From Chiloscyllium plagiosum (lineage: Eukaryota), in contig NC_057735.1 of assembly GCF_004010195.1 (NCBI RefSeq), forward strand, positions 2,055,308 through 2,119,307: 64,000 bases of DNA. The letters run 5' to 3'. A program made the position numbers and the translations under genes. The notes under the pieces are model-generated. The model did no database searches. It was given only the letters and a program-made list of their open reading frames with translations, and was not told the DNA's origin. Shown here one piece after another: positions 13,404 through 56,701 of the stretch (its first letter is position 1; every line of letters starts with the position of its first letter).

Positions 13404-14526
13404 GTACGTACTCTATCAGTTCCGTTGCTCTCTTTGATGCTCATTTGTCTTTCTGGGAATGTTCATGTTTTAAATTCACCCTGCTGGAGACCAAATGAGA
13501 TTGGGAAACATCTGTAACTGGGTTGTCTTATTCAGTCCTTGCCATGAAATGTTTTTATTTACTTAAATGGAATGATACAGCACAGAACGAGGCCATTCAC
13601 GCCATCGTATGTGTGCTGACTGCTTGAAGGAGTGGTTCAATTAATTGTGTTCTCCTGCTCTTTCCCTTTAACTCTGCAAATTATCCTTCAGATATTATCC
13701 AACTCTATTTTGAATGTTGCTGTTTAATCTGCTTCTATCCCCCTCTCAGCTATGTATTCCAGACTGCAGTTGCTGCATAAAAGATAAATGTTCCCTGCAT
13801 TCACATCCCTCCTTCCTTTGGATGTTTTTCTAAAATCTATTAGTGCGAGCCCTCCTGCATGTGGAAATAATATCTCCTTATATACAATGGATAGTACTTC
13901 CAATTGCTTAGCACCTTCCCTACCTAATGACGTCCCAGAATCTGTGACCAAGAAAAGATATTTTCTGTAATGTTGGAAAACCAGCAGCATTTTTGCAATT
14001 TCCCACATCAACAGTGATTTAATGAGCAGGTAGTCTGTGTTAGTGATGTTTTAGTGATGTCTGAAGGATATTGGCCAAGATACTGCAGACAGCTCCCCTG
14101 TTCTCTTTGAATATTGTCGTGGGATCTTACCATTCACTTAAGAGGGCAGGTGGAGGTTCAGTTTAACATCTCATCTGAACATCAGCTCCTAATACAGTGC
14201 ACAGCTTTCTCAATGAGGACAGATCTGATGGTTTTAACACGAATTGCATCTCATGCACTCAAGTTCACTCACGTTCACTTATTCACTCCACATGGCTTTG
14301 AATTCTCCTGTACTAAGCCAGGGGAGAGCGACAGATTCTCCTGTTAGTTATGGCAGATACAAGAGATGTCATTTCTGTCCTCAGTATGAAGGCTTAGGAG
14401 GAAATCGACTGTTCTGTAGCCAGTGAAATTTTCAATTGAGTCCCGTCAATCACGACAGCTATTTGGAGGAGAGGGTTCTCCGTTCCCGTGTCGAAAGAGG
14501 TGCTGCCTAACGTTGGCAATGAACAG

Positions 14527-15094
14527 TGTTATGGACCAGGCCAGACCTCCTCAAAACTCTTTATGAAGGTAGCGCAGATCCTAACTTTTTCTTATTTTAA
14601 GGGAAGATGTGGGTGGATATTCCAGGAGTGATGCAGCTGTTTAAACCCCTCAGCTTTAAGCAAAACAGAATTTATTTACACACTACAGTTGAAGTATGAA
14701 CAAAAAAAAACAGACCTTACAATAACAACTATTTGGAAACCCAACCGACTGAAAATTGCAACTTAACGAAGGAGCCGTTCCAATCCCCGCAACAGCCCAT
14801 AAACATACCCCTTGGTAAATGAACACAGGCAAGAGAGATTTCAGAGAGAAGAGTCAGGCAAAAAACATCTGTTGAGGCATGGAACCTTGTTTACTGTAAC
14901 AGCTTCCCTGCTACCAGCAGCTCCTGACTGCCTGCTAAAACAAAATCTAAACAAGAAAAAAACCTGAACTGGCCACTGTTCTGCCATTGTTTAAATTAGC
15001 CACTTCCAGACATATCGGCACCTCGGCCTTTACGACCCCTCTTGAAAAAAAACCAAGGACAAAATAATCTTGGTAAAGGGGCAGCATTGTCACA
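14527..15094 (-). mobile_element. solo LTR (~570 bp)
   Basis: TGTTA...TCACA ends, flanks ACAG/ACAA, minus-strand AATAAA near 14671; a related terminal segment appears at ~28920-29015. Confidence 0.55.
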
Positions 15095-15232
15095 ACAATC
15101 CAATTTTCAACAAGTCAGAATCTTTCATAAATTGTGCACAGTTTAACTATGAATTAGAAGGTGGACTGGTATAACTTTAAAATATAAAAACAATCTCTGG
15201 AAATAGTGGGTCAGGTGGCATCTATGGGCTCA

Positions 15233-15537
15233 GAGAACATAGAACGTTACAGCACAGTACTATCCCTGCTATCTGTCCTACATCTATCACCCTCAATTTA
15301 AATCTATGTCCCCTCGTCGCTATCTGAGGAAAAAGGCTCTCACTGTCCACCCTATCCATCCCTCTGATGATCTTATATATCTCAATTAAGTCACCTCTCA
15401 ACCTTCTCTCTAACGAAAACAGCCTCAAGTCCCTTAGCCTTTTCTCGTAAGACCTTCCCTCCATACCAGGCATCATCCTGGTAAACCTCTTCTGAAACCT
15501 TTCCAAAGCTGCCACAATCTTCCTATAATGCGGTGAC
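15233..15537 (-). mobile_element. CR1 LINE 3' fragment
   Basis: ORF 15222..15554 ALERFQKRFTRMMPGMEGRSYEKRL...RGDLIEIYKI plus TTCTATGTTCT tail. Confidence 0.88.
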
Positions 15538-15767
15538 TTGAAATATTGGCTCATTGAGCTGAACCATTAACACTGCCCCTCTCGCTGCCAATGCTGAGTA
15601 TTTCCAGCATTTTCTATATTTATTTCAGATTTCCAGCTGCTCTGGTAATTTGCATTTGCAGAAATTAGTTGCTGATTCACCTCCCTAACCCAGCATTCCC
15701 TTCCCTCTTATTGGGGGCCAGCAAGGTTTACCAATCTGCATCTCACTGTTCCCTTTCTCTCTTCCAG

Positions 15768-15889
15768 TTTTGCACTTTCGGAAGCCGGATGATTAGTCGG
15801 GGCTGTTACGTCTTCAACAGGCGCTTTGATCGTTTCCGTATGGCCCTTAATTCCATGGTAGAAAAGCACCTGAATTCTCAGATGTGGAG
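15768..15889 (+). CDS. ATXN7L2: ataxin-7-like 2 conserved exon (FCTFGSRMISRGCYVFNRRFDRFRMALNSMVEKHLNSQMW)
   Basis: cttccag acceptor, AG|gtcaga donor, phase 0-2; highly conserved ataxin-7 family block. Confidence 0.95.
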
Positions 15890-16371
15890 GTCAGAACATT
15901 ATCCTTTTTCTTGACTGGATATTCTCTTATATTGAGATGTGGGTGGGGATTTTGTGTGTGTGTCTCTGTGTGTGTGTCTGTGTGTTTCTCACCTGCAAAT
16001 GAAAATTTATGTTGTGCTATTCCCAACATCAGCAATCTTGAACTGCTTTACAGACTGTGAAATATTTTTGACTTATCGCCCCATTGCAATGTCATAAATT
16101 GGGCAACAAATATAGGAACTATCCTGCATAAATGACTCTCTTAAACTGAAAGACAGCACCTTCAATAGTACAGTGCTCCCTCAGTCAGGCTCCCTTAATA
16201 GTCCTTCTCTATGAAACTGTATTACCCCTGGACTGTCTTAAAACCGTGCATTGCTACCTGTGTACTGAACCCCCATAGAGCACTGCTCACTCAGTATTTT
16301 CCCATCAACTGCCATGTGCTTCATCAGTGTTTCCTGTGAAACAGTGTTGCATTATCTCTGACTGTGAGGGA

Positions 16372-16850
16372 TTCCCTCTGGACTCCCCTCTGTACCCACT
16401 CCATGAACTGTTCCCTTTGGACTCCACTCTGGGCATTGTTCCCTCTGTGCACTGTTCCCTCTGGGCACTGTTCCCTCTGTACCACCCTCTGGGCACTGTT
16501 CCCTCTGTACCCCCCTCTGGGCACTGTTCCCTCTGGGCATTGTTCCCTCTGTAACCCCCTCTGGGCACTGTTCCCTCTGGGCACTGTTCTCTCTGTACCC
16601 CCCTCTGGGCACTGTTCCCTCTGTACCCCCCTCTGGGCACTGTTCCCTCTGGGCACTGTTCCCTCTGGGCACTGTTCCCTCTGCACCCCCCTCTGGGCAC
16701 TGTTCCCTCTGCACTCCCCTCTGGGCACTGTTCCCTCTAGGCACTGTTCCCTCTGCACCCCCCTCTGGGCACTGTTCCCTCTGGGCACTGTTCCCTCTGC
16801 ACTCCCCTCTGGGCACTGTTCCCTCTGGACTCCCCTCTGGACTGTCCCCT
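16372..16850. repeat. compound minisatellite (16-bp CCCTCTGGGCACTGTT interspersed with 12-bp CCCTCTGYACYC)
   Basis: Directly visible tandem units; explains the repetitive ORFs in both orientations. Confidence 0.95.
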
Positions 16851-16972
16851 GACCGTGTGGGGTTCCCTGTGATAGTCGATGAGAAGATCAGCCTGGATAC
16901 GGCAGTCTGGGTGTGCGAGTGATGGAGACATCTTGATGATATCTAACTCTTGTTCTTTTGATTTCATTGCAG

Positions 16973-17804
16973 AAAGATTCCTCCAGCCACGGATCCACAG
17001 AGCACGCCACTGGCTGTCCCAACTCCAGCCCCCTCCGTGCTTTCTCTCCCATCTATTTCGTCTATTTCTGGATCTCTGTCTGCCTCAGCTTCTTCCCCGG
17101 GCGTGGAACTGAAAGCAGCGTCCTCGCCTGTTAGCCTTGTTGGAGCTCGAGGCCCTCCTGAGCCACCGTCTGCGTGCTGCCGCGCACTCCCTCCGCTGAC
17201 CCCTCCAGCCCGCATTCCCTCCCCCTCTTTGAGTAGATCACCCTGGACCAAGAGCAGCCGGGCGCCTGGGTTTCACTTGGAGCTTGGTCCCATCGGCGAT
17301 GCGTCTCTGAGCAAACACAAGAAACCAGGGCCTGCCTCCTGTAACCTGCCCCCTCCCTCCGATTCCCCCCTCAAAAGAAACTGTGTGTTGAGTCTGGACA
17401 GGATAAGTGCTGCCCCTCCTGGCGGGACGGCCCTCCACCCTCCTCACTCGAATACCTCTTCACACAGGGTGAGCAACGGACTCGGTGCCCATGGACCCAA
17501 AGCAGGACGCTCAGGATCGACCGCAATTCTGGGCCTTTCAGGGAACTCCCTCAAAGGGAATGGCAGGACAGTAGAACAGTTTGGTCCCAAAAAGGAGGCC
17601 CGCTTGTGTGCAGCTCTCAACCCAGCTTCGCCCCCACAGCCTCCCACGTCCCCAGCACGGACCGAGGGCAGGAAGCGGAAGAACGCAGCCTCCTGCTCGA
17701 AACCCACGAAAATAGCCAAGGGCCCCGACGTCAGCAGCGTCCAGAGAAAGAGAGAGGAGAGCCTGGCAACAACACGACCTCACAGCAACTCTCACCCACA
17801 CAAG
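16973..17804 (+). CDS. ATXN7L2: ataxin-7-like 2 large Ser/Pro-rich exon (KIPPATDPQ...GRKRKN...HSNSHPHK)
   Basis: ttgcag acceptor gives W-R-K-I-P-P as in the family; 832 nt open in frame; KRNCVL and GRKRKN motifs; AAG|gtaccc donor, phase 0. Confidence 0.9.
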
Positions 17805-17849
17805 GTACCCCAAACTCTTCTCCCTCTGCACACCCCAACGAAATGGAGA

Positions 17850-20800
17850 GGATAGGAGCAGGGGTAGGCCATTCTGCCCTTCCAGCCTGCCTCACCGTTC
17901 AATACCAGCATGGCTGCTCATGCAATCTCACTGTCCCATTCTTGCCCTCTCCCCATCCCTCTTGATCCCTTTAGCCTCCAGACCCACATCCAGCTCCCTC
18001 TTGAATCTACCTAATGAACTGGCCCCAACAGCTTCTTGTGGGAGAGAATTCCACAGGTTCACAATTCTCTGAGTGAAGAAATTCTTCCTGATCTCAGTCC
18101 TGAATGGCTCACCCTCTATTCTTAGACTGTGACCTCTCGTTCTGGACTTCCCCAACATTGGAAGCATGCTTCCCACATCTAGCCTGTCCAGTCCTGTCAG
18201 GATGTTATATGTTTCTATGAGATCCCCCTCATTCTTCTAAATTCCAGCAAGTCCAAGCCCAGCTGAGCCAGTCCCTGGGGAAACCTATCAAATAACTCCA
18301 AGGGACGAGTGCTCCTTTGTAGCTGGATGCTCCTTGCCAGTGGTGCTGCTGTACCTGGCTAGGGAGGAGCAATGGTATTTGGGCTCCTCATCCCTATTTA
18401 TCATCCAGGGTTCCTTTTCCCCCTGTGAGTACGGAGTGTGTGAGTGTGTGCACGGGTTGGATGGAGTCATGTTGACATCCAGTTGATGGTACTGAGGTTG
18501 TGTAGCTCACTGCCAATCTCCATCCAGAGCAAATTTTCAGCCATTGTTGCCTCCCTTTTGTGAGAAGGTGGAGAGTTTTTACCCCATTTCTGAAAGATCC
18601 TTGTGACTGGCGAATGTGAATATCGGGCTGATAGTAACTGTCTGTTTGCACAGTCATTTAAAAGTTAATGGTGTAAAAAGAGGCAAATTGTGGTAGTCAG
18701 ATATCATTGAGTCATAGAGGTCTACAGCACGGAAGAAGGCCCGTCAGCCCATTGATCTGCACCAGTCAGAAATACCTTAGTCAAAAACCTGAACTGTTGC
18801 AATCCCATTTTCCAGCACTTTGCCCATAGCCTTGGCATCACAGGTGCACATCCAAATCCTCCTTCAATGTGGTGAGTATTTCGGTCTGTCCCACCCTTGC
18901 AGGCAGTGAGGTCCAGATCCCAACCACCTTCGGTATGAAAAGATCTGTCCTCACATTCCATCCCCCCCCCCACCACCAAAACCTCCTACCCTTTCCTAAA
19001 TCGATAAGGGGAAAAGGTTTCACCATGTCTACGCCCCTGATCATTTTAAACATTTCCATCTTGCCCCTCCAAGGAAAACAACCCCTATCTATCCAACCTC
19101 TTCATAACTGAAACTCTCCAACCAAGGTGATATTTTAGTAACTCTCCTCTGCGCCCTCTCCAGTGCAGTCACATCCCTCCTATAATATGGATTCTAGATC
19201 TGTGCACACGACTCCAACTGAGGCTTAACCAACATTTTATAAAGTTCCAGCATAACCTCCCTGCTCTTAACCTCTATGCCTTGGCTAAAAGAGGCAAATG
19301 TGCCTTCTTAACCATTTTATCCACCTGTCTTACTGCCTTAAGAGACCAGCGGGCATGCACATCAAGGTCCTCCTGTCCCTTGTGTATTCCCTTGCCTTGT
19401 TCCCTCACGCTTCCATTTGCCACTGATGGGCCCATCTGACCAGTCCATCTATATAAAGTACAAAACCTTATAGCACAGGAACAGGCCCTTCGGCCCTCCA
19501 AGCTTGTGCCGTTCCACATACTCTATCTAAACCTGCCACCTATTTTCTAAGGATCTGTATCCCTCTGCTCCATGCCCATTCATGTATCTGTCTAGGGACT
19601 GGCTCAGCTGGGCTTGGACTTGCTGGAATTTAGAAGAATGAGGGGGATCTCATAGAAACATATAACATCCTGACAGGACTGGACAGGCTAGATGTGGGAA
19701 TGATGCCATCGTTCCCACCCCTAACACCCCCGCTGGCAACGCATTCCAGGCACCCGCACCCTCTGCGTAAAGAACCTTTCACATATATCTCCCCTAAACT
19801 TTTTCCCACTCACTTTGAACTCGTGATCCCTACTAATTGAGGCCCCACTCTTGGAAAAAGTTTCTTGCTATCCACCCTGTCTACACCGCTCATGATTTTG
19901 TAGGCCTCAATCAGGTCCCCCCTCAAATTCCTTCTTTCTAATGAAAATAATCCTAATCTACTCAACCTCTCCTCATAGCTAGCACCCTCCATACTAGGCA
20001 ACATCCTGGTGAACCTCCTCTGCACCCTCTCCAAAGCATCCACATCCTTTTGGTAATGTGGCGACCAGAACTGTATGTAGTATTCCAAATGTGGCCGAAC
20101 CAAAGTCTTATACTATTGTAACATGACCTGCCAACTGTTGTACTCAATACCCTGTCCGATGAAGGAAAGCATGCAGTATACCTTCTTGACCACTGACCAC
20201 TGAACTGACCTGTGTTGCCACTTTCAGGGAACAATGGACCTGAACACCCTGATCTCTCTGTACATCAATTTTCCCCAGGACTTTTCCATTTACTGTATAG
20301 TTCGCTCTGGAAATGCATTTGCCTGGATTGAACTCCATCTGCCATTTCTGTGCCCGACTCTCCAATCTATCTATATTCTGCTGTATTCTCTGACAGTCCT
20401 CTTCACTATCTTAGTGTCATCTGCAAAGTTGCTAATGAGGCAACTTACACCTTCTCCAAATCATTTATGTATATCATAAACAACAGTGGTCCCAGCATGG
20501 ATCCCTGTGGGACATCACTGATGACAGGTCTCCATTTTGAGAAGCGCCCTATTATATCCTCCTATAATCTAAGATTATCCTTCTCATTGTTTACCAACAC
20601 CATTTTTTGTATCATCCGCAAACTTAGTGATCAAGCCCCTCCCTTATATTTAAGTCTAAACCATTTATATGGATCACAACAGCAAGGGATCCAAAACTGA
20701 TAACTGTGGAATCCCACTGGACTCAGACTTCCAGTCACAAAAAGACCTTGCGGTCATCATCTTTCTGCCACTCAGCCAATTCTGGGGCCAATTGACCAAA

Positions 20801-42438: not shown

Positions 42439-44400
42439 AAAAAATGGAAGAGACATGCAAGGAAACTGTAGGCCAGTCAGTCTTACCTCAGTAGTGGGGG
42501 AAGCCCCCTTAAATGGGGTTTATCAGGGCTTTGTACTGGGTGATGCACATTGTTAAAAGGGCAATGAGTTACAGAACAAAAGGTGAGAGCTTAGAAGTTA
42601 ACGAAGATTACAGAGACCTTGATGAGTACAGCCATAGATTCCTGAACATAGCAGTTTACCACTTCTATGTACCATGCTTACTTTTCACATCTTCTCTCTA
42701 TTTAGATTGTGGCTTTAAAATAAGAGAAAGACACTGCTCTAAACCATGATCTGTGGAAAGAGATGTTGCATTTCAAATAAGTGACTGGAATGTTGAGAGA
42801 GATATTAACGTTCCTGCGTGTTGAGACTACAGAAGACAAGACTGTAAAGATGATTCAAGATGGCACCAACACCACAGGGCTCCTTGCAAACTCCTGAGTG
42901 CAGATTTTATTCTAACATTACACACTATTAAACCAAAGACTGTCTTGTTACTGTTGATCATGGTCCAAGCACCTCCTACGCAGTGTAACCTGTATACCTC
43001 ACTCTTCTAATTATCCTATGATCCGATTATCCTTACTTACTATAATCTGCCCGTACTGCTCACAAACCAAGATTTTCACTGTGTTTAGGTACACCGTCGC
43101 TTGTGAATTAGAAAGCATCTCTCTCTCCATTTTCTAAGAGTGGAAAAGTTAAGACAACATTCCACAAAGCTTGATACCTTCTCTTTCTCCTTTAATTCGC
43201 TTCTTGAAGGAAAATTGGAAAACTAGCTTCAAAGGTATCGAATTACAAAACTCCCAAAAGGAAAGACAGCATCCATAACCTCACCTAATTTCTGACAATT
43301 CCAGGAAAAACAAGGTTTCATTTCAAAGCTGCTACTACAGTGAGTCATGAGACAAAGCATATACACACTGATTTTGTTAGTCAAAGAAGAACGTTATACT
43401 CAAATGGTATTAAAAAACCCAGTTAGGTCACAACTACATGACTGCACATAGTTCTGATCCCCACATTATAGGATGTGATTGCATTAGAGAGGGCACAGAG
43501 GATTGCTACTTGGGCTGGAGGGTTTGTGCTATGAGGAAAGATTGGATACATTAGAGTTTCTTTCCTTGGATCTGTGAAGGTTTAGAGGGAAGCTGAAATA
43601 GGAGTATTATATTGTGAAGGGCATAAATAGGGGCAGGCACCTTTCTCTTAGTAGATTGGTCAATGAACTGGCCAAAGATTTAAGAAAATTAGAAGGCTAA
43701 GAGGGAAACCGAGGAGAAATTACTTTGCCCAGAGGGTGTTGGATGTCTGCAAATCACTGCCTGAAATGGTAGCTGACTCAGAAACTCTTTGTAATATATA
43801 AGTAATTAGAAATTTACTTGAGATGCTATGGCCTCCAAGGCTACGTTCTTATGTGCTGTGAATGTCTAAGAGTGTGAGACTTGTATTTTGCTGTTGTAGT
43901 TAGGTTTTGGGAAGTGGGAGGTTAGTTACTCACACCAGAATTCCCAGCATGTGACCTGCTCTTTCAGCCTCAGTATTTATCAGTTGGTCCAGTTTAGGCT
44001 TTTATCTATAGTAACACCCCACTACCCTGAATGTTGATAGTGGGGGAAATACAAACACATCACCATTGCGTGTGAAGTGAATCTGGGTGAATTCTCTTTT
44101 GTTTAAGATAGTTATTGCCCGGCACTATCATAGAAGCAAGAGTAGGCTATTCAAGCCTGCTCTGCCATTCAAGAAGATCATGGCTGATCGGACTTGCCTG
44201 GCAGCTTCCTGATGGGCTGGGCTGGTGTCCTCCTTAAGCCAACATTTTCCTGGTGGTGGGTGAGGCCGGTTCCTAGTGGCGAGGCTGATGTACTCATATC
44301 GTGACCAGGGCATGTTCTTTGTGGCTTGTGAGGTGCTTCACAAGCATCTTCCTTGTACTTGCTCTGGGATTTCCTCATTGCCTCTTGTGGTATGACAATC

Positions 44401-45196
44401 TTACTGTCTTTGTTGCTGTCCTGGCACACTGGACTGAGCAGGGATGACAACATTAACACTGTCAACATACATCCCTTTCGGTCTTTCTGTCGTACACTGC
44501 CTCTTCCTACTGAATGTCTCCTCAGCACATGATCCCTTTGGCCCTCCCTGCTGCTTAATGGGCGGTAACTGACAATCACGAAGCTTCAGCAGTGCCTGAA
44601 TGGCTGTCTCATGGGAGGGACTCCATGTGGCAGCATATGTTTGTGTGGCAATGCTTCTTTTACTGACCCCTGAGGTAAATATCCCTAGCTGAGAAACAGC
44701 TGCAGGATCTGGAGATGGATGCAGACGGGCATATGAATGCTCCACAATTTCCCGAGGTGTATCTTGCCAATTGAGTGGCACATCACTGGGCCCATAATTC
44801 TCATCAAGACATTCTATATCCTCTTCCATCCCTTGCTGCCAATGTTGAATTTGCCGATCCAACCAGTCTAGTTGCCTATGGAAACGCTTTGTGTCACTCT
44901 GCAGCATGGTGCGTGACAGCTGTTTCCATCTGGTGATCAGTAAACTGTGTTTCTCTTCGGTGGTGAGAGGGTAGGGTTGCTGCTGTACAATTGATACGCC
45001 ATCTGCCATGGGTTGCCATGTTCTGCGCTGGCGACAGTCAGGAGCCAGTCGTTCCAAAGACAGGCCAAGATGCCGTAAAAGATCTGGATCCAGGATGTGG
45101 CCGGAGTGTATGAGATGGTAGGCAGTGACACACAACCGGTTCTTGTTCGGGTCAAGATGAATTGTGATGCAGGCTTCACAACCCATCGCAAGATAC
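44401..45196 (-). CDS. ZSWIM3/ZSWIM9-like Mutator-derived protein, exon 3 (YLAMGCEACITIHLDPNKNRLCVTAYHLIHSGH...stop)
   Basis: tttcccag acceptor, phase 2 compatible with exon 2 (AG+G=Arg); 796 nt open in unique sequence; supplies the second Cys and the His pair of the Zn site. Confidence 0.8.
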
Positions 45197-46212
45197 CTGG
45201 GAAATCAATACAGAAACAATTATGTCAGGAAAGATTAGAAGACATTAAATGCCTATTAATCCCCATCAACTCCACCCTCAGCACGTATCTACTCCACCCA
45301 CTAAAAACTGAAAAAGGGTCTGACCCCCCTCACAAAGTCATCATGCCTCAATTTCTACAAAGCCTATATAACCAGCGAATCTCCCCCATCAAGTCTCTCA
45401 CTATACCAATCCCTACTGAGTCAATAAACTGTCGCCACTAAGGAGTATCTCCCCTGATTACCAGTGGATCTGTCTTTTGGATTTTCAGGATGTATAGCTG
45501 AGGATAGACTCTCACCAATTATCTTTCCCCTCCCATCTCAGACTCTGTACATCAGCAGCAGCCAGTCTCCAATTCTTAAATGTGGAAAACAGCAAATCAA
45601 CAGTAAACACGTTCATAAAAATGGCCAGAAATAGGGAAAACGTGAAAACCTTTTGTCTTGCATTGCTTGGGAATGGAACACAATACTAATTAACTATCAT
45701 AGGAAAGGTAGAATAATGGAGACTGGCAATCTCTGCTACATTTCCATAGCAATACACTGACCGACGATATATCACCTGCTTCAGCCCCTTGTTTCCTTTC
45801 AGCAACAGCTCTGGTACTTTCCCAAACAATTATATTTCACCAATGGCAGAAGAAGCCGAGCAAAAATGCAAGTGTTAGTCTGAACAGGACAGGAACGACA
45901 AAGTGAATGGGAAAGGGAACTATGCAACAAGCAGGACAGCAGCAGGCCTGAACAGGCAATCTCAGAAGCCAAACCCTGTAACTACAGACAAATCTTCCAA
46001 ATACACTGTGCCATTGCTCAATCAACAATCTGCACATGATTCACCAAGGAATGGAAATCACAGCGAGAGACCTAAATTAAGTTAAACAAAAACATACATA
46101 CTGAATGCATGCTTGTCCAAGTCAAGATGTTGAGGATTGCCAATTCAGCCAGTATGGTAATGGCAGGTGCTATGTCCACCTGTACAGAGAGGAAGAGGTG
46201 TCGGTTCTCACT

Positions 46213-47716
46213 TGCGAGGAAGAGGATGGCCAAAGTGAGGGTAGGGCTGATCAGGGATAGTGGAGAAAACTTGCGCCTGGAGTCAGAGGAAGTAGGGGAG
46301 GTCCTTACTGAACATTTTGCTTCAGTATTCACTACTGAGAGGGACCTCCATGTTTCTGAAAACAGCGTAAAACAGACTGATTTGCTCGAACAGGTTGATG
46401 TTATGAAGTAGGATGTGCTGAAAATTTTGAAAACTGAAGGATAGATAAATCCCCTGGGCCAGACTGGATATACCCTAGGTTACTACAGGAAGCGAAGGAA
46501 GAGATTGCCTTTGGCGATGATCTTTGCATCCTCATTGTCCACTGGAGCAGTCCAGATTATTAAAGGGTGGCAAATGATATTCCCTTGTTCAAGAAAGGGA
46601 ATAGGGATAACCCTGGGAATTACAGACCAGACAGTCTTACGTCAGTGGTGGGCAAAGTATTGGAAAGAATTCTGAGAGAAAGGATTTATGATTACTTGGA
46701 AAACCATAGTTTGATTAGACATAGTCAGCATGGTTTTGTGAAGGGCTAGTTGTGCCTTACAAACCTGATGGAACTCTTTGAGGATGTGACAAAACATGTT
46801 GATAAAAGTAGAGCAGCGGATGTGGTGTACACGGATTTTAACAAGGTGTTTGATATGGTACCCCATGGTAGGCTCATTCAAAAAGGAGGGAAACAGGGAA
46901 ATCTGGCTATCTGGCTACAGAATTGGCTGTCCCATCGAATACAGAGGGTGGGGATAGATGTAAAGTATTCAGCCTTGGGCTCGGTGACCAGTACTGTTCC
47001 GCAGGTATCAGTTTTGGAATCTCTGCTCTTTGTGATTTTTATAAATGACTTGTATGAGGAAGTGGAAGTGTGGGTTAGTAAGTTTGCTGATGACATGAAG
47101 GTTGGTGGAGTTGTGGATAGTATGTTGCAACAGGTTGTAGGTTGCAACAGGATATTGGCAGGATGCAGAACTGGGCTGATAAGTGGCAGATGGAGTTCAA
47201 CCTGGAAAAGTGTTAAGTCATTCACTTTGGAAGATCAAATTTGAATGCAGAATACAGGGTTAAAGGCAGAATTCTTGGCAGTGTGGAGGAACAGAGGGAT
47301 CTTAGGGTCCATGTCCATAGTTCCCTTAAAGTTGCCAACCAAGTTGAAAGGGTTGTTAAGAAGGCATATGGTGTGTTGGCTTTCAAGATGTCGAGAGGCA
47401 TAGTCAGAGTGGATACCCAGAGACTTTTTCCCATGGTGGAAATGTCTATTATGGGGGAACATAATTTTAAGGTAATTGGAAGAAGGTTTGGGGAGATGTC
47501 AGAGCTAGGTTCTTTAACAGTGCAGGTACATGGAATGCACTGCCAAAAGCAGCAGTAGAGTCAGATATATTAGGCGCAATTAAGCGACTCTTGGATCGGC
47601 ACATGGATGATAGTACAATAAAGGGTATGGAGGCTATTCTGATCTTAGAGTAGGATAAATGGCCGACACAACACTGAGGGCCGAAGGTCTTGTACTGCGC
47701 TAGACTGTTCTATGCT
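46213..47716 (+). mobile_element. CR1 LINE ORF2 fragment with internal deletion, in intron 2 of the minus-strand gene
   Basis: KKGNRDNPGNYRP, SQHGFVKG, KFADDMK motifs; GTTCTATG tail; several stops and frameshifts. Confidence 0.93.
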
Positions 47717-47849
47717 CTGCCGCCAGCCCCACCAGTAATCTTGTTCAGGGAATCGTGGCTATCATAAGGGGGTACTGCATCTGAACGCAGAACAAGATCT
47801 GTGTTGAAAATCTCACCTTCATTCAAAGTTTGGCAAAATGAATAATTAC

Positions 47850-48016
47850 CTCTGTTTGGGTCTCACCCCAGTGGATCGAATGCGTGGCTGTCCATAGTGG
47901 ACACACTGCAGATTCACTGAGGTGTATTTGAAGTGACCTGGAATTGGTACTGTACGTGTCTCATTTGCCTTCTTAACCGTATGGGTCCTAGACTTTTTGA
48001 AGATGCTCCCTGTTGC
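47850..48016 (-). CDS. ZSWIM3/ZSWIM9-like protein, exon 2 (ATGSIFKKSRTHTVKKANETRTVPIPGHFKYTSVNLQCVHYGQPRIRSTGVRPKQ)
   Basis: tacttacag acceptor, AG|gtaatt donor, phase 0-2; KY-x5-C-x-H-x-G pattern of Mutator/FAR1-type DNA-binding domains. Confidence 0.82.
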
Positions 48017-48441
48017 CTGTAAGTACAACAATAAATGACAGTGAAACCACATTCATGAGACTGTAAAACAGAAGTACATCACTGTCGAAAACATGCCATC
48101 TCTCACTTGTTTCTTCACCCTTTCCCCTCCTCATCACTATTCACTCTGCTGTCCTCCCCAACACCATCTCCCTCACTCATCATCGTCCTCCTTTTCCCAC
48201 CTCTCTTAGCCTCACATCTCTCTCATCCCCATGGCATCTCTCCCACTTCCATTCACTCCCATGTCACCCCAACCTGCATCCTCCTATATCCNNNNNNNNN
48301 NNNNNNNNNNNNNNNNNNNNNNNNNNNNNNCCCTGTCCCCTCACAGTCCCCCTTTCTGTAACCAATCCTCCCAACCCTCCTCCATTCCCCCCACTCTCTC
48401 CTCCCCTCCCCCTCCCCCTTTAACCCCACGGGGTGGGGAAC

Positions 48442-48543
48442 CTGCTGGAAAAGCTCCAATCTGCAGCTAAACTCGTCGAAGCTCTCAAACTCCAGCGTTC
48501 CAAACATGTTGAGAAACTGCTGCGTGGTGTCGAGTGAATTCAT
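48442..48543 (-). CDS. ZSWIM3/ZSWIM9-like protein, exon 1 (MNSLDTTQQFLNMFGTLEFESFDEFSCRLELFQQ)
   Basis: ATG in GGCATGA context, CAG|gttccc donor (weak), phase 0; F-x-S-F-D-E-F helix typical of the start of this domain. Confidence 0.75.
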
Positions 48544-48694
48544 GCCTCAGAATCAATTACAATAACTGAATGATTTATATTTGTGAATATTTGGGGTATC
48601 CGGTGGCGAGTGACAAGAGGAGAATTGATTTAAATTCTCCAGAACCTGAGGGAACCAGCCTGGGAATATTTTCAAATTGCCGAATATAACCGAT

Positions 48695-48784
48695 CACTTC
48701 CTCACTGCGCATGTGCGGCTCCGAATGTGCATTACGTCGTCGACAATATGCGGTGACGTCTGGAAGTGACCGCGCGTGCGCAGT
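48695..48784. promoter_or_regulatory. CpG-rich promoter module: ETS/GABP-, NRF1- and CRE-like sites
   Basis: CACTTCC 48695, TGCGCATGTGC 48706, TTACGTC 48732, TGACGTC 48754, GGAAGTG 48762, GCGCGTGCGCA 48772; CpG-dense in an otherwise CpG-poor window. Confidence 0.7.
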
Positions 48785-48848
48785 ACCGTCTGCCCGCCTC
48801 CCCGATACGTAGGGTTGAGTGTAGGGGTGTGTGTGACGCAGGGTCGTA

Positions 48849-49373
48849 GGAGCAGGTGAATCGACGTTTCGGGCATAAGCCCTTCATTAGGAATGAGGCC
48901 TGTGGGTTGGGAGATAAATGGGAGAGGGGGGGTGGAGCTGGGAAGGTAGCTGAGGGTGCGATAGGTAGACGGAGGTGGGGGTAAAGGTGATAGGTCGGAG
49001 AGGAGGGCGGTGATAGGTGGGCAGGAAGATGGACAGGTGGGACCGGTCATCAGGGCGGTACCAAGATCTGGGGTAAGGTGGGGGGAGGGGAGATGTGGAA
49101 ACTGGTGAAATACACATTGATCCCGCGGGATTGGAGGGTTCCGAGGCGTTCTTCCTCAGGCGTCAGGTCCTCCATTGCCAGACCCTAAGCACAGGATGCC
49201 TGGAGGAGGAACGCCTTATCTTTCCCCCACCTTACCCCAGATCTTGGCACCTCCCTCATGACCTGTCCATCTTCCTTCCCACCTATTAGCTCCGCCCTCC
49301 TCTCCGACCTATCGCCATTACCCCCACCAGCGTCTCTCAGCTACCTTCCCCTCACAGCCTCATTCCTGATGAA
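48849..49373. mobile_element. Penelope-derived fold-back element inside the intergenic promoter
   Basis: Inverted arms ~48883-49086 / 49223-49373; the loop encodes LHCQTLSTGCLEEERLIF (PLE ORF C-terminus-like); minus-strand CTAATGA-A-GGGC-TTAT-GCCC-GAAACGTC at 48863-48890. Confidence 0.75.
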
Positions 49374-49439
49374 CGGCTGTCGACTCCCGGATACACAGGG
49401 CCCGCTCCCGGAGTCACCTGATCCCCCGCAGACCCGTAC

Positions 49440-49620
49440 CACAGCCCCGCCCCGAGCGTCACCATCCCTGCGGGCCCGCCCCCGGAGTCAACAGCCCCGC
49501 CCCTTAGGTAAGTAACCCCGCCCCCGGGGTCACCAGCCTTGGGCCCCCACCCCAGTCACCGCTTCCGGACCCGCCCCGGATGTGGGGCCTGTTAGGTCAA
49601 GCTTGGGGTGGGCGGGAACT
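49440..49620 (+). promoter_or_regulatory. CYB561D1 proximal promoter, GC-box cluster / CpG island
   Basis: Repeated CCCCGCCC (Sp/KLF-type) at 49445, 49495 and 49515, ETS-like CTTCCGG at 49562; immediately upstream of the ATG. Confidence 0.7.
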
Positions 49621-49657
49621 GAGACTCGGGCGGTGGCGGACCGGGACAGGCCCATCG

Positions 49658-49826
49658 ATGAGGAGTCCGCAGCGACTCCCAGAGCCCCTGAACGGTTGGG
49701 CCGAGCCGGGAAGCTCATGGGCAAGCGGCCTGCTGCCCTGCCTCAGGAAGGCGGCTGTGGCGGCGGCGCATATCAGCGCGATCGGACTGAGCGTGTACCT
49801 GGGGCTGCTGAGCCGGCTAGGGACCA
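49658..49826 (+). CDS. CYB561D1: cytochrome b561 family member D1, exon 1 (MRSPQRLPEP...LRKAAVAAAHISAIGLSVYLGLLSRLGT)
   Basis: First TM helix with AH...SR.GT; A|gtgagt donor, phase 1. Start codon choice inferred (an in-frame ATG also lies at 49580). Confidence 0.85.
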
Positions 49827-49850
49827 GTGAGTACCCGGGAGGGCGAGCCC

Positions 49851-50012
49851 GCACCCCCCTCCCACCCCCGTCTCGCGCGCGCAACCCGTCTCGCGCGCGC
49901 ACCCCCCCTCCCACCCCCGTCTCGCGCGCGTGCCCCCTCCCACCCCCGTCTCGCGCGCACCCCCCTCCCACCCCCGTCTCGCGCGCGCACCCCCCTCCCA
50001 CCCCCGTCTCGC
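49851..50012. repeat. GC-rich ~30-bp minisatellite (CACCCCCCTCCCACCCCCGTCTCGCGCGCG) running into a gap
   Basis: Five or more visible copies at the start of CYB561D1 intron 1. Confidence 0.9.
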
Positions 50013-50515
50013 NNNNNNNNNNNNNNNNNNNNNNNNNNNNNNNNNNNNNNNNNNNNNNNNNNNNNNNNNNNNNNNNNNNNNNNNNNNNNNNNNNNNNNNN
50101 NNNNNNNNNNNNNNNNNNNNNNNNNNNNNNNNNNNNNNNNNNNNNNNNNNNNNNNNNNNNNNNNNNNNNNNNNNNNNNNNNNNNNNNNNNNNNNNNNNNN
50201 NNNNNNNNNNNNNNNNNNNNNNNNNNNNNNNNNNNNNNNNNNNNNNNNNNNNNNNNNNNNNNNNNNNNNNNNNNNNNNNNNNNNNNNNNNNNNNNNNNNN
50301 NNNNNNNNNNNNNNNNNNNNNNNNNNNNNNNNNNNNNNNNNNNNNNNNNNNNNNNNNNNNNNNNNNNNNNNNNNNNNNNNNNNNNNNNNNNNNNNNNNNN
50401 NNNNNNNNNNNNNNNNNNNNNNNNNNNNNNNNNNNNNNNNNNNNNNNNNNNNNNNNNNNNNNNNNNNNNNNNNNNNNNNNNNNNNNNNNNNNNNNNNNNN
50501 NNNNNNNNNNNNNNN

Positions 50516-50885
50516 AGAGGCTGAGAGGTGACCTTAGAGGTTTACAAAATTGAGGGCATAGATAGGATAAATAGACAAAGTCATTTCCCTGGGGTCGGAG
50601 AGTCCAGAACTAGAGGGTATAGGTTTAGGATGAGAGGGGAAAGATATAAAAGAGACTTAAGTGGCAACTTTTTCGTGCAGAGGGTGGTACGTGTATGGAA
50701 TGAGCTGCCAGAGAATGTTGTGGAGGCTGGTACAATTGCATCATTTAAGAGGCATTTGGATGGGTATATAAATAGGAAGGGTTTAAAGGGATATGGGCCG
50801 GGTGCTGGCAGGTGGGACTAGATTGGGTTGGGATATCTGGTCGGCAAGGGTGGGTTGGACCGAGGGGTCTATTTCCATGCCGTAC
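50516..50885 (+). mobile_element. CR1 3' end
   Basis: EVYKI...NFFVQRVVRVWNELPENVVEAG; same subfamily as 22250-22690. Confidence 0.9.
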
Positions 50886-50894
50886 ATCTGAGTC

Positions 50895-51035
50895 TGACAT
50901 CACCAACCCAAGGAATCTCAAGCATATAAGTAGAAAGCTTCACCACTGGTGCTTCATCTGGAGGCTCACTGATGTTACCTAGTATGGTGAAACATCTGAA
51001 AGCAAACCTTCCAGCTCAGTGAGCAAACTATATCC
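50895..51035 (+). mobile_element. Penelope pseudo-LTR remnant with degenerate hammerhead motif
   Basis: Related to 40780-40945; tca-CTGATG-TTACC-tagtat-GGT-GAAA-CA-TC-tga at 50966-50999. Confidence 0.6.
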
Positions 51036-51083
51036 CGTGCCTACTTATATCCACATTCTTGAATGATTAAATCAAAAATAGTT

Positions 51084-51381
51084 ATTAGATTAGATTCCCT
51101 ACAGTGTGGAAACAGGCCCTTTGGCCCAACCAGTCCACACCGACCCTCCAAAGAGTAACCTACACAGACCCATTTCCCTCTAAATGACACACTTAACACT
51201 ATGGACAATTTAGCATGGCCAATTCACCTGACCTGCACATTTTTGGACTGTGGGAGGAAACCAGAGCATCCGGAGGAAACCCACGCAGACACTGGGAGAA
51301 TGTGCAAACTCCACACAGACTGGAATTGAACCTGGGACCCTGGTGCTGTGAGGCTACAGTGCTAACCACTGTGCCACAGTG
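51084..51381 (-). mobile_element. V-SINE (HE1-type)
   Basis: Reverse complement of the 1437-type SINE with (TAGAT)n tail. Confidence 0.88.
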
Positions 51382-52249
51382 TTCTCAAATCCGAAACCCT
51401 CCTGCTTGATATTCTGTTTTGAATTGGTACTTGGAAAAGGCATGAATCGAGAAGAAATGATGTGGTAGAGGGAATGAAGATTTGGCAGGAAGGGACTGAG
51501 CATAAAGCTCCCCCTTCTATTAGCTACCGAGGAGGTCACATACAGATTAAAGTTTTCTTCTAATGTAATAGTTCACAAACTGAAAGCATGTTACTACTTC
51601 TCAGTGTCCTATTTCCAAATCCCACGAGTCATCTTTGTCGCACTCCCAGATAATGGGAAGTGTTGTATGTGCATTTTTCTGTCTGTAAAAACCAGATTTT
51701 GCTACACAAGAGGCTTAAGATAGATAAAGAGAACATATTTGATGTCAGCTGGTTCAGTCCCAACTTCTATCTCCTTTTTTGGTGCTAGTCACTGTGCCCA
51801 GAGCTGTACTGACTATTGATTTAACCTAATTAAGTTGGTAATATCAATGGGCCAATAATTCAGAGCCTTAAGTTAATGGACTAGTTTAAATCAAAGCAGC
51901 TAGAAACTCTAATGACTGTGAAACTCCCATTTATTGTTGTAAAAGCCTGGTTCACTCATTTTCTTTAGGGAAGGTAGTCTCCTGCTCTTAGTTGTAAGTC
52001 AGACTGGGTATCTCCAGATCCACAATGATGTGGTTGGCTCTTGGCGACCCTCTGGAAATAGGCTGAGTGTGGTACTCAATTTAAGCACAGTTAGGAATGG
52101 GCAACAAGAGCTGAAACAGTAGAGAATCACTGTTAGAACAGCATCCAAACAGTGTCTTTTATAACACATCAATAATTATTTTATTATTCTGGCTTGTCTC
52201 AATGCTGCACTTGTGAATGTTCACCCTCTGAATATCTGCTCTTTTCCAG

Positions 52250-52287
52250 GTCGTTTCTCTTGGCACCCAGCTTGCATGACTACAGCT
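52250..52287 (+). CDS. CYB561D1: CYB561D1 exon 2 (SRFSWHPACMTTA)
   Basis: ttttccag acceptor, GCT|gtaagt donor, 38 nt, phase 1-0; FSWHP carries the first heme His. Confidence 0.92.
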
Positions 52288-53319
52288 GTAAGTGTTATGC
52301 TTTGTAGCCCGCAGATAATTTGAAACAGAAGTATTCCAGTGCTCTGAAATAAAGAAAAGAGAATGTTTAATGTACTGATTAATTCAGTGAATTTCTTTTG
52401 TGTGCAGTTATTGCAACATGCAGATTTTACCTTTTCTGTAGGATTGTCATTGAGGTCTACAGCATAGGTGTCCCAGAATCCTTGAACCATTTGTGAAATT
52501 TCAATCCTGTTCCCATCCTGAGTTAATAACTAGAAGGATCTTGGGATTTAGTTTTAATTTTGCTTTATCCACCAGTGAGGTATTGACAGGACCCCCTTTC
52601 CAAACCAAACTGGGTACTGAATTCTCAGGCAGGCCTTTTAAATGAGTACAAACAGACCATTGTTACATGTGTTTGAAGACCAGGGGTGCAGACCTTGGGG
52701 CCTGCTGGTTTTGAACCTGTACAGATGTGGAGTGACTCTTAACAAGAATATTGTGTCCTGTACATTGGATAAGCAAAATCTCACTTCTCTGAGGGAGCCC
52801 AAAAAGCTAGCTATCTGGTGAAAGAATAATGATTTTTCACAATGATTTTTAAAGGTTTCTCTGTCTGCATACACTTTGTGCCAGCTGTTCTTGTAGCAGT
52901 TTCAACGTTTACATTCATAAATCACAGCTTCCTACTTAAACTGCTTGTATTCTGATCTCTTAAGATATTGAAGTTGCAACCGTGAGTAGCAGGGTTTAAC
53001 TCTTTGTGTGTGTAAATTTATGATTACATCATAAGGCAAGAATGTTTGGCATTAAAATAGGGCTAATTACATCTGTGTATTTTGCACTCTAATCACACCT
53101 GATAGTTATGAATAGTCTTGACTCCCGAAGCCCCTCTTGTTCTGCTCTTTAAAGCTGTCTTGCTTGACCAAAGTTTTGATCACCTGGTCTTAATTTGTGC
53201 CTCCATGGTAAATAGATTTAGTAAAGTTCCTGTGAGGGGCTTTGGGACTTTCACCACATCAAAGATGTCAAATAAATTGTTAAACTGAAAGAACTACGGA
53301 TGCTGTAAATCAGAAACAA

Positions 53320-53349
53320 AACGTTTCAGGTTGAGTAACCCTTCCTCAG
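53320..53349 (-). ncRNA. hammerhead core motif in a truncated Penelope-derived remnant
   Basis: CTGAGGA-A-GGGT-tactca-ACCT-GAAA-CG-TT; core intact but no pairing stem I. Confidence 0.5.
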
Positions 53350-53539
53350 AACCAAAAGAGATGGTCTATTTTAAAATAAAAAAAACGTTAGGAACAGTGT
53401 GATGACACTGACAATTGTGACAGCAACAGTCTGTCTAACAAACCTTGCTTAATTCAAATCATGGGAGAAAGCTGGGAATTAATGAATTCATCCTCTGCTG
53501 ATTGGAAAGAAATGGGTGGATTTCTGGCTCAATTTATCT

Positions 53540-54080
53540 GTCCTTTTACTGGAAGGGGATTGAAATGCAAGGACAAGATGGACTTGTTACATTTGCGTGG
53601 GGTTTTTGGTGAAACGCAACTAATGTGCAATTTTGGACTCCATGTCAAGGAAGAATATGTTTTACATTGAAGGCAGTGCAGCAAAGGCTTACTGCATTGA
53701 TGTGTCTGGATGACTGGCTGAGTAAATTGGTTCTCTACTCTGGTGTTTAAAAGAATGAGGTGATGTAACTGAAACATATTAGATGTTGACTGGACTCAAA
53801 AAGGTTAACACTTAGATTTTAACTCCTCTCTGGGGAATTTAGAACATGGGGTCATTATCTTAGGATAAGTGGGCCAGCCATTTAGAATTGAGATGAGAAA
53901 TGTCTTCACTCAAATTAACCTTTTGAATTATCCCCAAACATTCTGGATAATCAGTTCTCATTTAAGGCTGAAATGGATGGGTTTTGGTTCCTTTGAGGAG
54001 GAAGGGTTATGAGGAGCAGGCAGGGCATCAGCTGTGATTGTATCAAATGGGATGGAACAGGCTAAAGGAGCTGTACACTT
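53540..54080 (+). mobile_element. degraded CR1 3' fragment
   Basis: Remnants of RGLKCKD, VQFW, RMR.DVTETY and FRIEMR motifs. Confidence 0.7.
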
Positions 54081-55377
54081 TTATTCCTTATGTTATTATT
54101 TCTGCTCGGGCTAATTTGGTGTCAGAAGTGCTTGAAAACATTTTCCTTGATGCACGCATGAACTGCTTTAATAAGATGTAAGTGCAGTATTCCAACACTA
54201 ATGTCAACAGCCCTTGCTCAGTTGCTTTCCTAGATTCAGTAGAGCTGCTATTTCCCAAAAAAAAAGCCATCTCTCACATTGGCCTTATTGGTTTTCCACA
54301 GGTACCCTTTACAAGTTACAGCTACACGTGTGAAAGATGTGCACTAAAAGTATGGACTGGTGTGACTTAGACACGGTCTACACTGGACTCTTGCTTTTGT
54401 TTCTTGGGACAGTGACTCTGTATGCCACGTTTCCCAGCTCCCACTGAATGCTTCACTCCACAAATAATACATGGATTTCATTAGAGCAAGGTGTCTGGAG
54501 TACAAGCAAGCATCTCTCTGCTTTCCCCTAACTGTATTGCGTAGACTTAAACATAGACTAATTTGATAAACCTGTAAGCCGTGGATTGTGAAAGATGGGA
54601 CTTTTACATAATGCAGAGTTGTGTTGATGTTGTCAGTTGCATTTTCCTGAGTCAGGTTGATGGGATGTGTAGGCATAGAACATTCTTCCATGGCTCGGTT
54701 CTCTGCTTTCAAAGGGAAGCAGTTGCCATTTATCTAGGGAGGTGTGAAATTATGGATGTCATTTGGAGGTGGCCACGGCTGTAATAGCCATGGAAAATTG
54801 TGGATTGTGAATCTTGTGACCTGACTTAGTGACACCAGTCCTAGCAGTGCTCCATTGAATTGACACAGTGAACATAAATGCAGAACACAGGCCACTCTGT
54901 CACTTTGCAGCAACTATGACAGTTGTGGCATTGTTGGAAATCAGGTTGCCTCATGGCTTCTACCAGAGCAGAGAAGGAAATGTTAATTATTATGGTTTGG
55001 CAATGTATTTCATAAAATTTGGATAATGAAAAGCTCAGTTTGTGTTGAAATGTTCAGTTCATGAAAGGCTGCAATAGCAAGCAGTGTGCAAGTTTGCTTT
55101 GGTGAAAACTAAGATGTTTAAATCCTTTTCCTCACTCTGTTGCTGGTATGTGGAAAATATCTACACAAAGAAATAACCAAGGATCTATGTGATCCTTGTT
55201 GGGTTATGGCAACTTCCATGTAGACTGAAGGAGCACTAGGTCCAATTGTTGCTCGAAGCCAATCTGGTCCAGTTGAGGAACTATCGGTGATTCCTATGAG
55301 ATGTGCAACTTGTTGGTATCGGTTAAGGGCAGAATCAGTCCCACCAGTCATGGCCTGGCGATGAGTTCGTAGAATTC

Positions 55378-55722
55378 TCTACAGTGTGGAAGCAGGCCAA
55401 TTCGGCCCGTCGAGTGCACACTGATCCTCTGAAGAGCATCCCATCCCCCTACCAGCCCAGCCCCCTACCGCAGCCCTGAATTTCCCTTGGCTAATCCATC
55501 TAGGCTGCACATCCCCAGACTTCATGCAGCAATTTAGTGTGGCCAATCCACCCCAACCTGCAAATCTTTGGACTGTGGAGGAAACCAGAGCACTCGGAGG
55601 AAACCCACATGGACATGGGAGAATGTGCAAACTTCACACAGGCAGTTGCCTGAGGCTGGAATCAATCCTGGGTTTCTGGTGCTGTGAGGCAACAGTGTTA
55701 ATCACCTAGCTACTATGTTGCC
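55378..55722 (-). mobile_element. V-SINE (older HE1-type)
   Basis: V-domain reverse complement GAGGAAACCAGAGCACTCGGAGGAAACCCAC...GAATGTGCAAACT. Confidence 0.85.
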
Positions 55723-56197
55723 TACTGACAGCATTATGTAGGGTAGCACATTATGAATGGTCAATTATCCAAAATACCAGAGGTTGCAGGTGCTGTTTAG
55801 CATAACTGCATCATGTGGATGTTTGCTTTTTAATTTTTAATTCCTGTGTTAACAACAGATGCTTGAACTTAGTGCACTGTTAACATTGTAAAGCCCATCC
55901 CAAAACACTTTGCAAAAGTGTCATCAAACAGGATTTGACACAGTGATTTTAGGTTAGATAGTCAGATGTTAGGCCAGAGTTAGGGTTTTAAGAAAAAGAC
56001 ATTTTGGGAATGACTCTTGGAGTTTAGGGGTCTTGGCCATTGAAGTCATGGCAGTCAATAGTGGAGTGCTGAGGATCAGGGATGCTGAAAGGATTAGAAC
56101 TACAGCAATGAATTGTCAGTCTAACCCCATAGCAACCTGACATCAAGGTTGGATTGAAGCTGATTTCATTGACTTTGTGCCTGTTTTGTTTTTCCAG

Positions 56198-56701
56198 GTT
56201 TGTTTTTGTATGACTGAGGCCATTCTGACCTTTTCACTGGACAGTTCACCCTTCTTCTTTTGTTCGATTAAAGCCAAGGTACGAATTCACTGGATGATGC
56301 AAGTCTTTGCCGCCATTTTTGGCTCAGTCGGTCTTATCTTCATTGTCTCCAGCAAGAACATCTCCGAGTCTCTGCACCTGACCTCATGGCACAGCTTCCT
56401 CGGCCTAGGGACTCTGATCGCAGTCTGTGGCCAGCTACTGTGTGGACTCTTCCTTTTGTTTCCACAATTAATTAACACTTACTCTGTGGCCCGGCTACGG
56501 CTTTATCATGCTACATGTGGTTTGGTGACTTATCTGATGGCCACAGCTACAGTGGTACTGGGTCTGTGCTCAGATTGGTTCAAATCCCAGGTTAACGGAG
56601 TTTTGTGGTACATTTGTTTGATTGTACCAGTAATTCCAGCTCTCGTCATCATGAACCAAATCAACAATGGCTACCTCTCCAAGAAGAAAATAGAGATTTG
56701 A
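56198..56701 (+). CDS. CYB561D1: CYB561D1 exon 3 (VCFCMTEAILTFS...KKKIEI*); full protein 236 aa
   Basis: tttccag acceptor, phase 0; EAIL.FS....FFFCS.KA..RIHW, HLTSWHS and LYHATCG supply three more heme His; multiple TM helices. Confidence 0.95.
   Translation, partial: VCFCMTEAILTFSLDSSPFFFCSIKAKVRIHWMMQVFAAIFGSVGLIFIVSSKNISESLHLTSWHSFLGLGTLIAVCGQLLCGLFLLFPQLINTYSVARLRLYHATCGLVTYLMATATVVLGLCSDWFKSQVNGVLWYICLIVPVIPALVIMNQINNGYLSKKKIEI

Follow-up and report, generated by a model that had tools for sequence, protein, structure and literature searches.

Transposase domestication and transcription factors derived from Mutator-like elements (MULEs) are already known kinds. Babu et al. 2006 (PMC1702500) report that the WRKY-GCM1 domain was recruited repeatedly from MULE transposases as stand-alone transcription factors. 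The Aedes Muta1 transposase binds its own ends as probable oligomers (PMC5499845), and ZSWIM3, ZSWIM1 and ZSWIM9 are grouped together in PMC10236294. In Drosophila, the internally deleted P-element product KP keeps DNA binding (PMC4938643) and, by the title of a reference cited there, dimerises. PMC6446971 doubts the presence of MULEs in vertebrates, where a 2019 survey left the Mutator superfamily unconfirmed. Here we analyze LOC122563022, a gene in a 64,000-nucleotide (nt) window of the shark Chiloscyllium plagiosum (NCBI RefSeq assembly GCF_004010195.1, contig NC_057735.1, positions 2,055,308 to 2,119,307). We consider it probable that this locus is a carpet-shark host gene that arose from an intron-containing copy of a MULE transposase, that the catalytic core was lost by internal deletion, and that the product is a zinc-dependent, predicted-dimeric, DNA-binding transcription regulator.

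The locus shares with the MULE-derived transcription factors Aft2/Rcs1p of yeast and FAR1/FHY3 of plants an insert-containing C-C-H-H zinc domain, the loss of the transposase domain (PMC1702500) and a single fixed position across related genera, and Aft2 is its top fold match. Unlike them, it is a vertebrate gene with an in-frame internal deletion that kept the C-terminal hairpin of the transposase, its parent fossils and parent introns are still visible, and its ligand spacing is H-x2-H. It has the N-terminal domain family of ZSWIM3, ZSWIM1 and ZSWIM9 (ZSWIM3_N and DUF5575_N, above the Pfam cut-offs) but neither their RNaseH-like nor their SWIM domain, and its nearest kin are shark transposons. 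The zinc domain and C-terminal hairpin are also those of animal MULE transposases (PF10551; Muta1 and the horn-shark proteins P0180 and P0016, described below), and the intron positions are those of fossil copies; in contrast to these elements, LOC122563022 has no DDE core, is single copy and fixed, and yielded no terminal inverted repeats. In architecture the locus parallels KP, whose retained DNA binding has a predicted counterpart here (PMC4938643). However, KP belongs to the P/THAP superfamily and is mobile, many-copy and part of living invasions, whereas LOC122563022 is fixed and has outlived its family in the C. plagiosum genome. Literature searches, which covered few subscription journals, returned no account of this gene or of MULE domestication in sharks, and MULE terms are absent from the main text of the Squalomix preprint (10.1101/2025.06.08.657570). 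What is new is the traceable step from a fossil family to a gene, together with signs of repeated convergent deletion. Because a gene derived from a MULE can here be set beside both its broken sister copies and horn-shark relatives that are nearly intact, the passage from transposase to host gene is resolved to a matter of a few codons.

The gene consists of three minus-strand exons separated by GT-AG introns in phases 0 and 2, giving 1065 nt, or 354 amino acids (aa) and a stop. Among 81 combinations of splice boundaries tried, all within 1 nt of those first proposed, this is the only one with GT-AG introns. The translated frame is identical, letter for letter, to XP_043572264.1 (RefSeq, "uncharacterized protein LOC122563022 isoform X1", Chiloscyllium plagiosum). 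The first-pass annotation, made from the DNA letters, had drawn this frame correctly; it had called the gene hidden, and in that it was mistaken, as the model is already public in RefSeq as an uncharacterized LOC. Its assignment of a WRKY-GCM1-type zinc domain to the N terminus was also right: the whole protein matches the Pfam profiles ZSWIM3_N (40.5 bits; cut-off, 27.8) and DUF5575_N (30.5 bits; cut-off, 24.1). Neither profile reaches its cut-off on single exons, because the domain is divided over three of them. The MULE profile of Pfam has no match in the window protein; a CEL_III_C match (E of about 0.1) was treated as noise. As the annotation had noticed, there are no visible terminal inverted repeats: none that convinced us was found in the window or in four fossil copies, nor by cross-matching ends, and at 30% divergence they may have decayed. 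The claim of past mobility rests, therefore, on dispersal and the transposase domain. Two further proposals stood in part. The decayed CR1 said to lie in an intron corresponds to repeated, reverse transcriptase (RT)-like DNA in intron 2 (about 46242 to 47614), which we presume to be CR1. The proposed upstream CpG promoter agrees with an observed/expected CpG ratio of 1.0 at 48501 to 49000, but the larger GC island (about 49350 to 50013) carries exon 1 of the neighboring gene, CYB561D1.

To find relatives, we searched 1.84 billion protein representatives and obtained 180 matches at E values up to 0.001. The best of these come from sharks; matches from the ESM Atlas all score under 0.9 and are leads only. 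Two proteins of the horn shark Heterodontus francisci, P0180 (XP_067904632.1, 731 aa) and P0016 (XP_067866046.1, 443 aa), are encoded on different chromosomes, are 92% identical in the alignment made here, and carry MULE and RNaseH-like domains with the D-D-E residues. In P0180 we found a ZSWIM3_N-like domain, MULE (57.2 bits), RNaseH-like (99 bits), a weak SWIM and the catalytic residues D295, D359 and E470. With the CxxH motif lacking its Cys in P0180 and P0016 stopping short, both resemble young transposases that have suffered slight damage. The LOC122563022 protein aligns with P0180 on either side of a 415-residue gap. Gone with P0180 residues 186 to 600 are a segment that we take to be helix-turn-helix-like, the DDE catalytic core and the SWIM finger. 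Identity is 42/59 (71%) over residues 35 to 93 and 23/48 in the hairpin, residues 163 to 210. LOC122563022 is thus a member of a shark MULE transposase family that has undergone an internal deletion, and its C-terminal half is transposase-derived as well, the hairpin having been fused to the zinc domain through the deletion.

The family has at least 14 further loci in the C. plagiosum genome. Stops or frame changes interrupt all 13 that were inspected; pieces of the RNase H core survive in 10. The most informative is a fossil at about 40.265 Mb of contig G000:C6, which we call L026. It is colinear with LOC122563022 over all three exons and both introns at 65 to 74% nucleotide identity, with stretches homologous to exon 1 and intron 1, and it carries about 1.4 kb where LOC122563022 has its deletion junction. 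The introns, and an early-stop acceptor in intron 2, are common to both copies and were therefore inherited from the transposon, not gained after domestication. The long interspersed nuclear element (LINE) pieces in intron 2 are absent from L026 and would thus have entered after the two copies split. DNA searches with the 3′ DNA of LOC122563022 returned L026 only; searches with the promoter and exon 1 returned the window alone, with a first-look filter that misses short pieces about 70% identical, such as exon 1 of L026. These results bear out the transposase origin suggested in the first-pass annotation. Many dispersed relatives do exist, as it had considered, but what they copy, in broken form, is the parent transposon rather than the gene. 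Directly after L026 lies a tandem array of units of about 540 nt (L026:7000-10000, equal to G000:C6:40268500-40271499).

The annotation had also likened the protein to ZSWIM3/ZSWIM9. The likeness extends to the N-terminal domain family, but shark MULE transposases, at 71% identity over exon 2, are its closest kin. We regard a diverged orthologue or paralogue of vertebrate ZSWIM3 or ZSWIM9 as very improbable. The two Pfam cut-offs that the protein passes would fit such a gene, as would the NCBI name "ZSWIM3" on the horn-shark relatives. Against this, LOC122563022 falls among fossils within a clade of shark transposons (96/94), in a tree built without human or other bony-vertebrate ZSWIM3/9, and Pfam finds neither RNaseH-like nor SWIM domains in its protein. 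C. plagiosum, moreover, has a separate, distant gene with ZSWIM3_N (37.5 bits) and RNaseH-like (107 bits) domains (G000:C37:9371980-9384227; matches L003, L004, L034 and L035), which sits on a long branch away from the LOC122563022 family. That gene would be the better candidate for a ZSWIM3-type host gene, and LOC122563022, on these comparisons, appears not to be an orthologue of ZSWIM3 or ZSWIM9. In the C37 gene, the first catalytic Asp is present and the second is seemingly replaced; part of its first exon is duplicated in tandem about 440 nt upstream. NCBI names P0180 and P0016 "ZSWIM3" or "ZSWIM3-like", labels that in the horn shark probably mark transposon copies.

We then considered what the remaining protein could do. 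An AlphaFold2 model built with a 76-row alignment gives a confident zinc domain of four strands; the predicted local distance difference test (pLDDT) score is mostly above 90 for residues 1 to 130 and 83 to 91 for the hairpin (169 to 210), and the tail is disordered. The predicted zinc ligands C72, C96, H120 and H123 are conserved in 75, 74, 67 and 68 of the 76 aligned relatives. Yeast Aft2 bound to DNA was the top match in both fold searches, at middling scores (Foldseek E, 0.028; VIA Z, 7.0, with a root mean square deviation of 3.3 over 100 aligned residues), and WRKY domains came next in Foldseek. The model thus agrees with the anticipated WRKY-type fold, and the domain is predicted to have a WRKY-GCM1 (Aft2-like) fold with C-C-H-H zinc ligands. 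Two copies of residues 1 to 218 are predicted to pair through residues 163 to 210 with a score of 0.48 (best of three controls, 0.23; agreement between runs in at least 42% of contacts; pLDDT of at least 67); zinc was included, which places this prediction outside the calibration of the tool. In that calibration, the dimer mark was reached by 21/30 solved pairs and 0/23 single chains from microbes and by 17/29 pairs and 0/30 single chains from eukaryotes. With the core lost and the zinc domain and predicted pairing hairpin kept, the protein likely acts as a two-copy gene regulator. In the mechanism we propose, an internal deletion would have removed the catalytic core from one MULE transposase copy and left a product with a predicted zinc domain and a predicted pairing hairpin that no longer cuts DNA. 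The dimer would recognize short motifs in pairs, which derive from transposon ends and are today dispersed over the genome, and binding without cutting may repress or modulate nearby genes, a putative transcription-factor role. The gene may first have been retained as a repressor of its own transposon family. The yield of full protein would be held down by the inherited early-stop splice in intron 2 and by the weak donor of intron 1.

If LOC122563022 is a host gene, it should occupy one place in related species and be under selection. The gene adjoins CYB561D1 in both Chiloscyllium species, judging by accession order, and accessions also place it on the CYB561D1 chromosome in Hemiscyllium and Stegostoma, which points to one fixed orthologous locus across related carpet sharks. 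For phylogeny we used a 13-row tree and a 20-row FastTree, leaving out fossils L029, L031 and L032 (fewer than 120 mapped residues). In the 13-row tree, the carpet-shark genes are sister to L026 (ultrafast bootstrap, 100). Over the aligned span, L026 has accumulated 25 indels, 22 of them frameshifting, and 5 stops; LOC122563022 has none. In neutral simulations, only 1/1000 runs stayed without a stop at 15% divergence per lineage and 15/1000 at 10%, but 67/1000 did at 6%. Differences to L026 at codon positions 1, 2 and 3 are 24, 19 and 37% over residues 1 to 130 (P = 0.002), and non-coding parts differ by 25 to 38%. Among C. plagiosum, C. punctatum and Hemiscyllium, 1/130 residues varies in the zinc domain versus 18/224 after it (P = 0.0025), and the 34 residues of exon 1 are identical in C. 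punctatum and Hemiscyllium (34/34). Identity to the Stegostoma model, which is without residues 1 to 93, is 34/38 at the domain end, 40/48 in the hairpin and 121/166 elsewhere. The zinc domain is thus under constraint, while the remainder mainly keeps its frame; in these alignments, selection is clear only on the zinc domain, residues 1 to 130.

Evidence for transcription comes from contigs of public runs from four studies, whose RNA nature was guessed. The annotation had predicted two junctions. That of intron 2 (47850/45196) was seen: contigs of three of four runs (X1, X2 and X7) skip the intron at the predicted sites, the fourth (X6) has the join with one other letter, and one further loose contig end, in X3, reads into exon 3. 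The intron 1 join (48442/48016) was not displayed in any of six contig runs. Indirect signs compatible with splicing of intron 1 are two contigs that start at 48441 with 10 and 26 unaligned letters, and contig breaks at 48019.

A number of observations weigh against a functioning host gene that encodes a regulator. Besides the undisplayed intron 1 join, contigs of X1, X2 and X3 continue into intron 1, and in X3 and X8 exon 2 is joined to the acceptor at 46179. There a stop follows three codons later and three of the four zinc ligands are removed; this acceptor and its stop are those common to L026. The early-stop splice has a depth of 6.6 in X3 versus 6.1 for the productive one, and it is the only form listed in X8. 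Full protein would therefore come from only part of the transcripts. Beyond the zinc domain, codon positions 1, 2 and 3 differ from L026 by 40, 29 and 29% over residues 131 to 215, hairpin included, and by 30, 30 and 29% over residues 216 to 354, with no codon-position signal for residues 131 to 354 as a whole (P = 0.53). The ratio of nonsynonymous to synonymous change (dN/dS) in run X6, with at least 20 differences, is 0.36 to 0.51 (P = 0.02 to 0.11), a weak signal. The Stegostoma model starts at residue 94 and thus does not cover exons 1 and 2, and no whale-shark model was found among the protein matches. Loss of the helix-turn-helix-like segment and a degenerate tail motif, presumably AT-hook-like, may weaken DNA binding. 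The middling fold scores and the uncalibrated dimer prediction belong on this side as well.

Two other explanations take up parts of this evidence. LOC122563022 could have as its sole job the repression of its own transposon family, in the manner of KP, by binding transposon ends or by poisoning transposase oligomers through the shared hairpin. A DNA-binding domain with a dimer module and without a catalytic core does parallel KP (PMC4938643), the hairpin is predicted to dimerise, and deleted forms in three shark lineages all keep both modules. Against this, every inspected relative in the C. plagiosum genome is broken and about 30% diverged, and the 3′ DNA of LOC122563022 matches L026 only, which leaves the search of this genome without an active partner; the zinc domain is nonetheless almost invariant among hemiscylliids. 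We therefore think that repression as the only function is unlikely, while a start as a KP-like repressor is plausible by analogy. The locus could instead be a non-autonomous transposon remnant that is passively transcribed from the CYB561D1 promoter and slowly decays, its open frame a product of past constraint or luck. Its head-to-head position with a CpG-island gene, the frequent intron 1 retention and early-stop splicing, the codon signal that is flat over two thirds of the protein and the radical changes in run X6 would all be expected of a remnant. So would identity to Stegostoma of 77%, versus 98% for CYB561D1 to Rhincodon, and the N-terminally short Stegostoma model. What a remnant does not readily account for is 0 breaks against 27 in its sister fossil, the third-position excess and 1/130 variable sites in the zinc domain, and the retention of all four zinc ligands. 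The branch to LOC122563022 is also shorter than that to L026 (0.19 versus 0.56, the fossil branch being inflated by alignment error). A passive remnant thus seems improbable to us, and a host gene for a DNA-binding regulator is the reading we prefer.

Other sharks carry deleted copies too. Carcharodon and Cetorhinus have proteins of 558 to 559 aa, and these and three horn-shark proteins are encoded on contigs other than those of CYB561D1. The Carcharodon and Cetorhinus genes were considered as orthologues of LOC122563022 and rejected, given these contigs and a grouping of the lamniform genes with fossils L022 and L023 (93) in the 13-row tree. The deletion gap spans about 255/276 to 519 in lamniforms, 252 to 631 in the horn-shark protein P0013 and, in P0180 numbering, 186 to 600 in LOC122563022; the lamniform and horn-shark gaps are those of gene models, in which decayed DNA may have been annotated as introns. 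The zinc domain and hairpin are kept in all deleted shark copies. Different breakpoints at other loci suggest repeated taming. We tentatively propose, as a scenario that is possible rather than probable, that a true Mutator family invaded sharks, that its activity in horn sharks lasted until recently, and that it underwent at least two and perhaps three independent domestications (carpet, lamniform and horn sharks). Each time a different deletion would have removed the core and kept the zinc domain and hairpin, so that self-repressors of a transposon would have turned, by a convergent route, into transcription factors specific to one lineage. Provided that the deletions in lamniforms and the horn shark are present in genomic DNA, the family offers a natural replicate experiment, showing which parts of a transposase hosts keep. 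P0009 (Carcharodon LOC121269736) and P0011 (Cetorhinus LOC144669988) represent a different deleted copy, in which the helix-turn-helix-like part and SWIM survive; each gene also has a short isoform, the difference of 94 residues being compatible with use of the same early-stop splice. P0014, from Pristiophorus japonicus, combines a related zinc domain with a repetitive region and a C-terminal cysteine cluster, so the transposase family is present outside galeomorph sharks too.

The features of the locus and its surroundings are collected in Table 1.

Table 1. Features of LOC122563022 and adjacent DNA, in window coordinates
Feature	Position	Strand	Details
3′ untranslated region	44198..44400	-	Covered by spliced contigs; extends further in run X6
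Exon 3, coding part	44401..45196	-	796 nt, codons 90-354; ligands C96, H120 and H123, deletion junction, hairpin, disordered tail
Helical hairpin	44836..44979	-	Residues 163-210; transposase C-terminal module, predicted homodimer interface
Internal deletion junction	45072..45087	-	Codons 131/132; about 1.4 kb at this place in L026 only
Intron 2	45197..47849	-	Phase 2, 2653 nt; about 580 nt in sister fossil L026
Alternative intron 2 acceptor	46170..46200	-	Exon begins at 46179; loose contig ends in runs X3 and X8
Decayed LINE pieces in intron 2	46242..47614	+	Antisense; RT-like open reading frames, repeated elsewhere, absent from L026
Exon 2	47850..48016	-	167 nt, codons 35-90; beta strands, first zinc ligand C72, basic insert
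Intron 1	48017..48441	-	Phase 0, purine-rich, contains 39-N gap; homologous stretch in L026
Exon 1, coding part	48442..48543	-	102 nt, codons 1-34; encodes the first helix and strand of the zinc domain; its donor, GTTCCC, is weak
CpG-rich proximal region and 5′ leader	48544..48840	-	Single-copy; includes short alternative first exon of RefSeq isoform X2, about 48732-48705
Two inverted repeats resembling short interspersed nuclear elements, between the head-to-head genes	48844..49378		Very high depth
CYB561D1	49580..56701	+	Exons about 49580/49658-49828, 52252-52290, 56198-56701; head-to-head neighbor, synteny anchor

The neighboring genes yielded some minor observations. A contig of run X1 covering exon 1 of CYB561D1 has a 9-nt in-frame insertion at 49628. 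On the left, exons of another gene lie at 13080 to 17855 on the plus strand. An SCA7 search gave no match in the window, and the name of this gene is thus unconfirmed; we take its exons to resemble an ataxin-7 family gene, presumably ATXN7L2, which we would expect here from human gene order. One of its introns contains a short-period tandem repeat (16300 to 16950) that is open in several frames.

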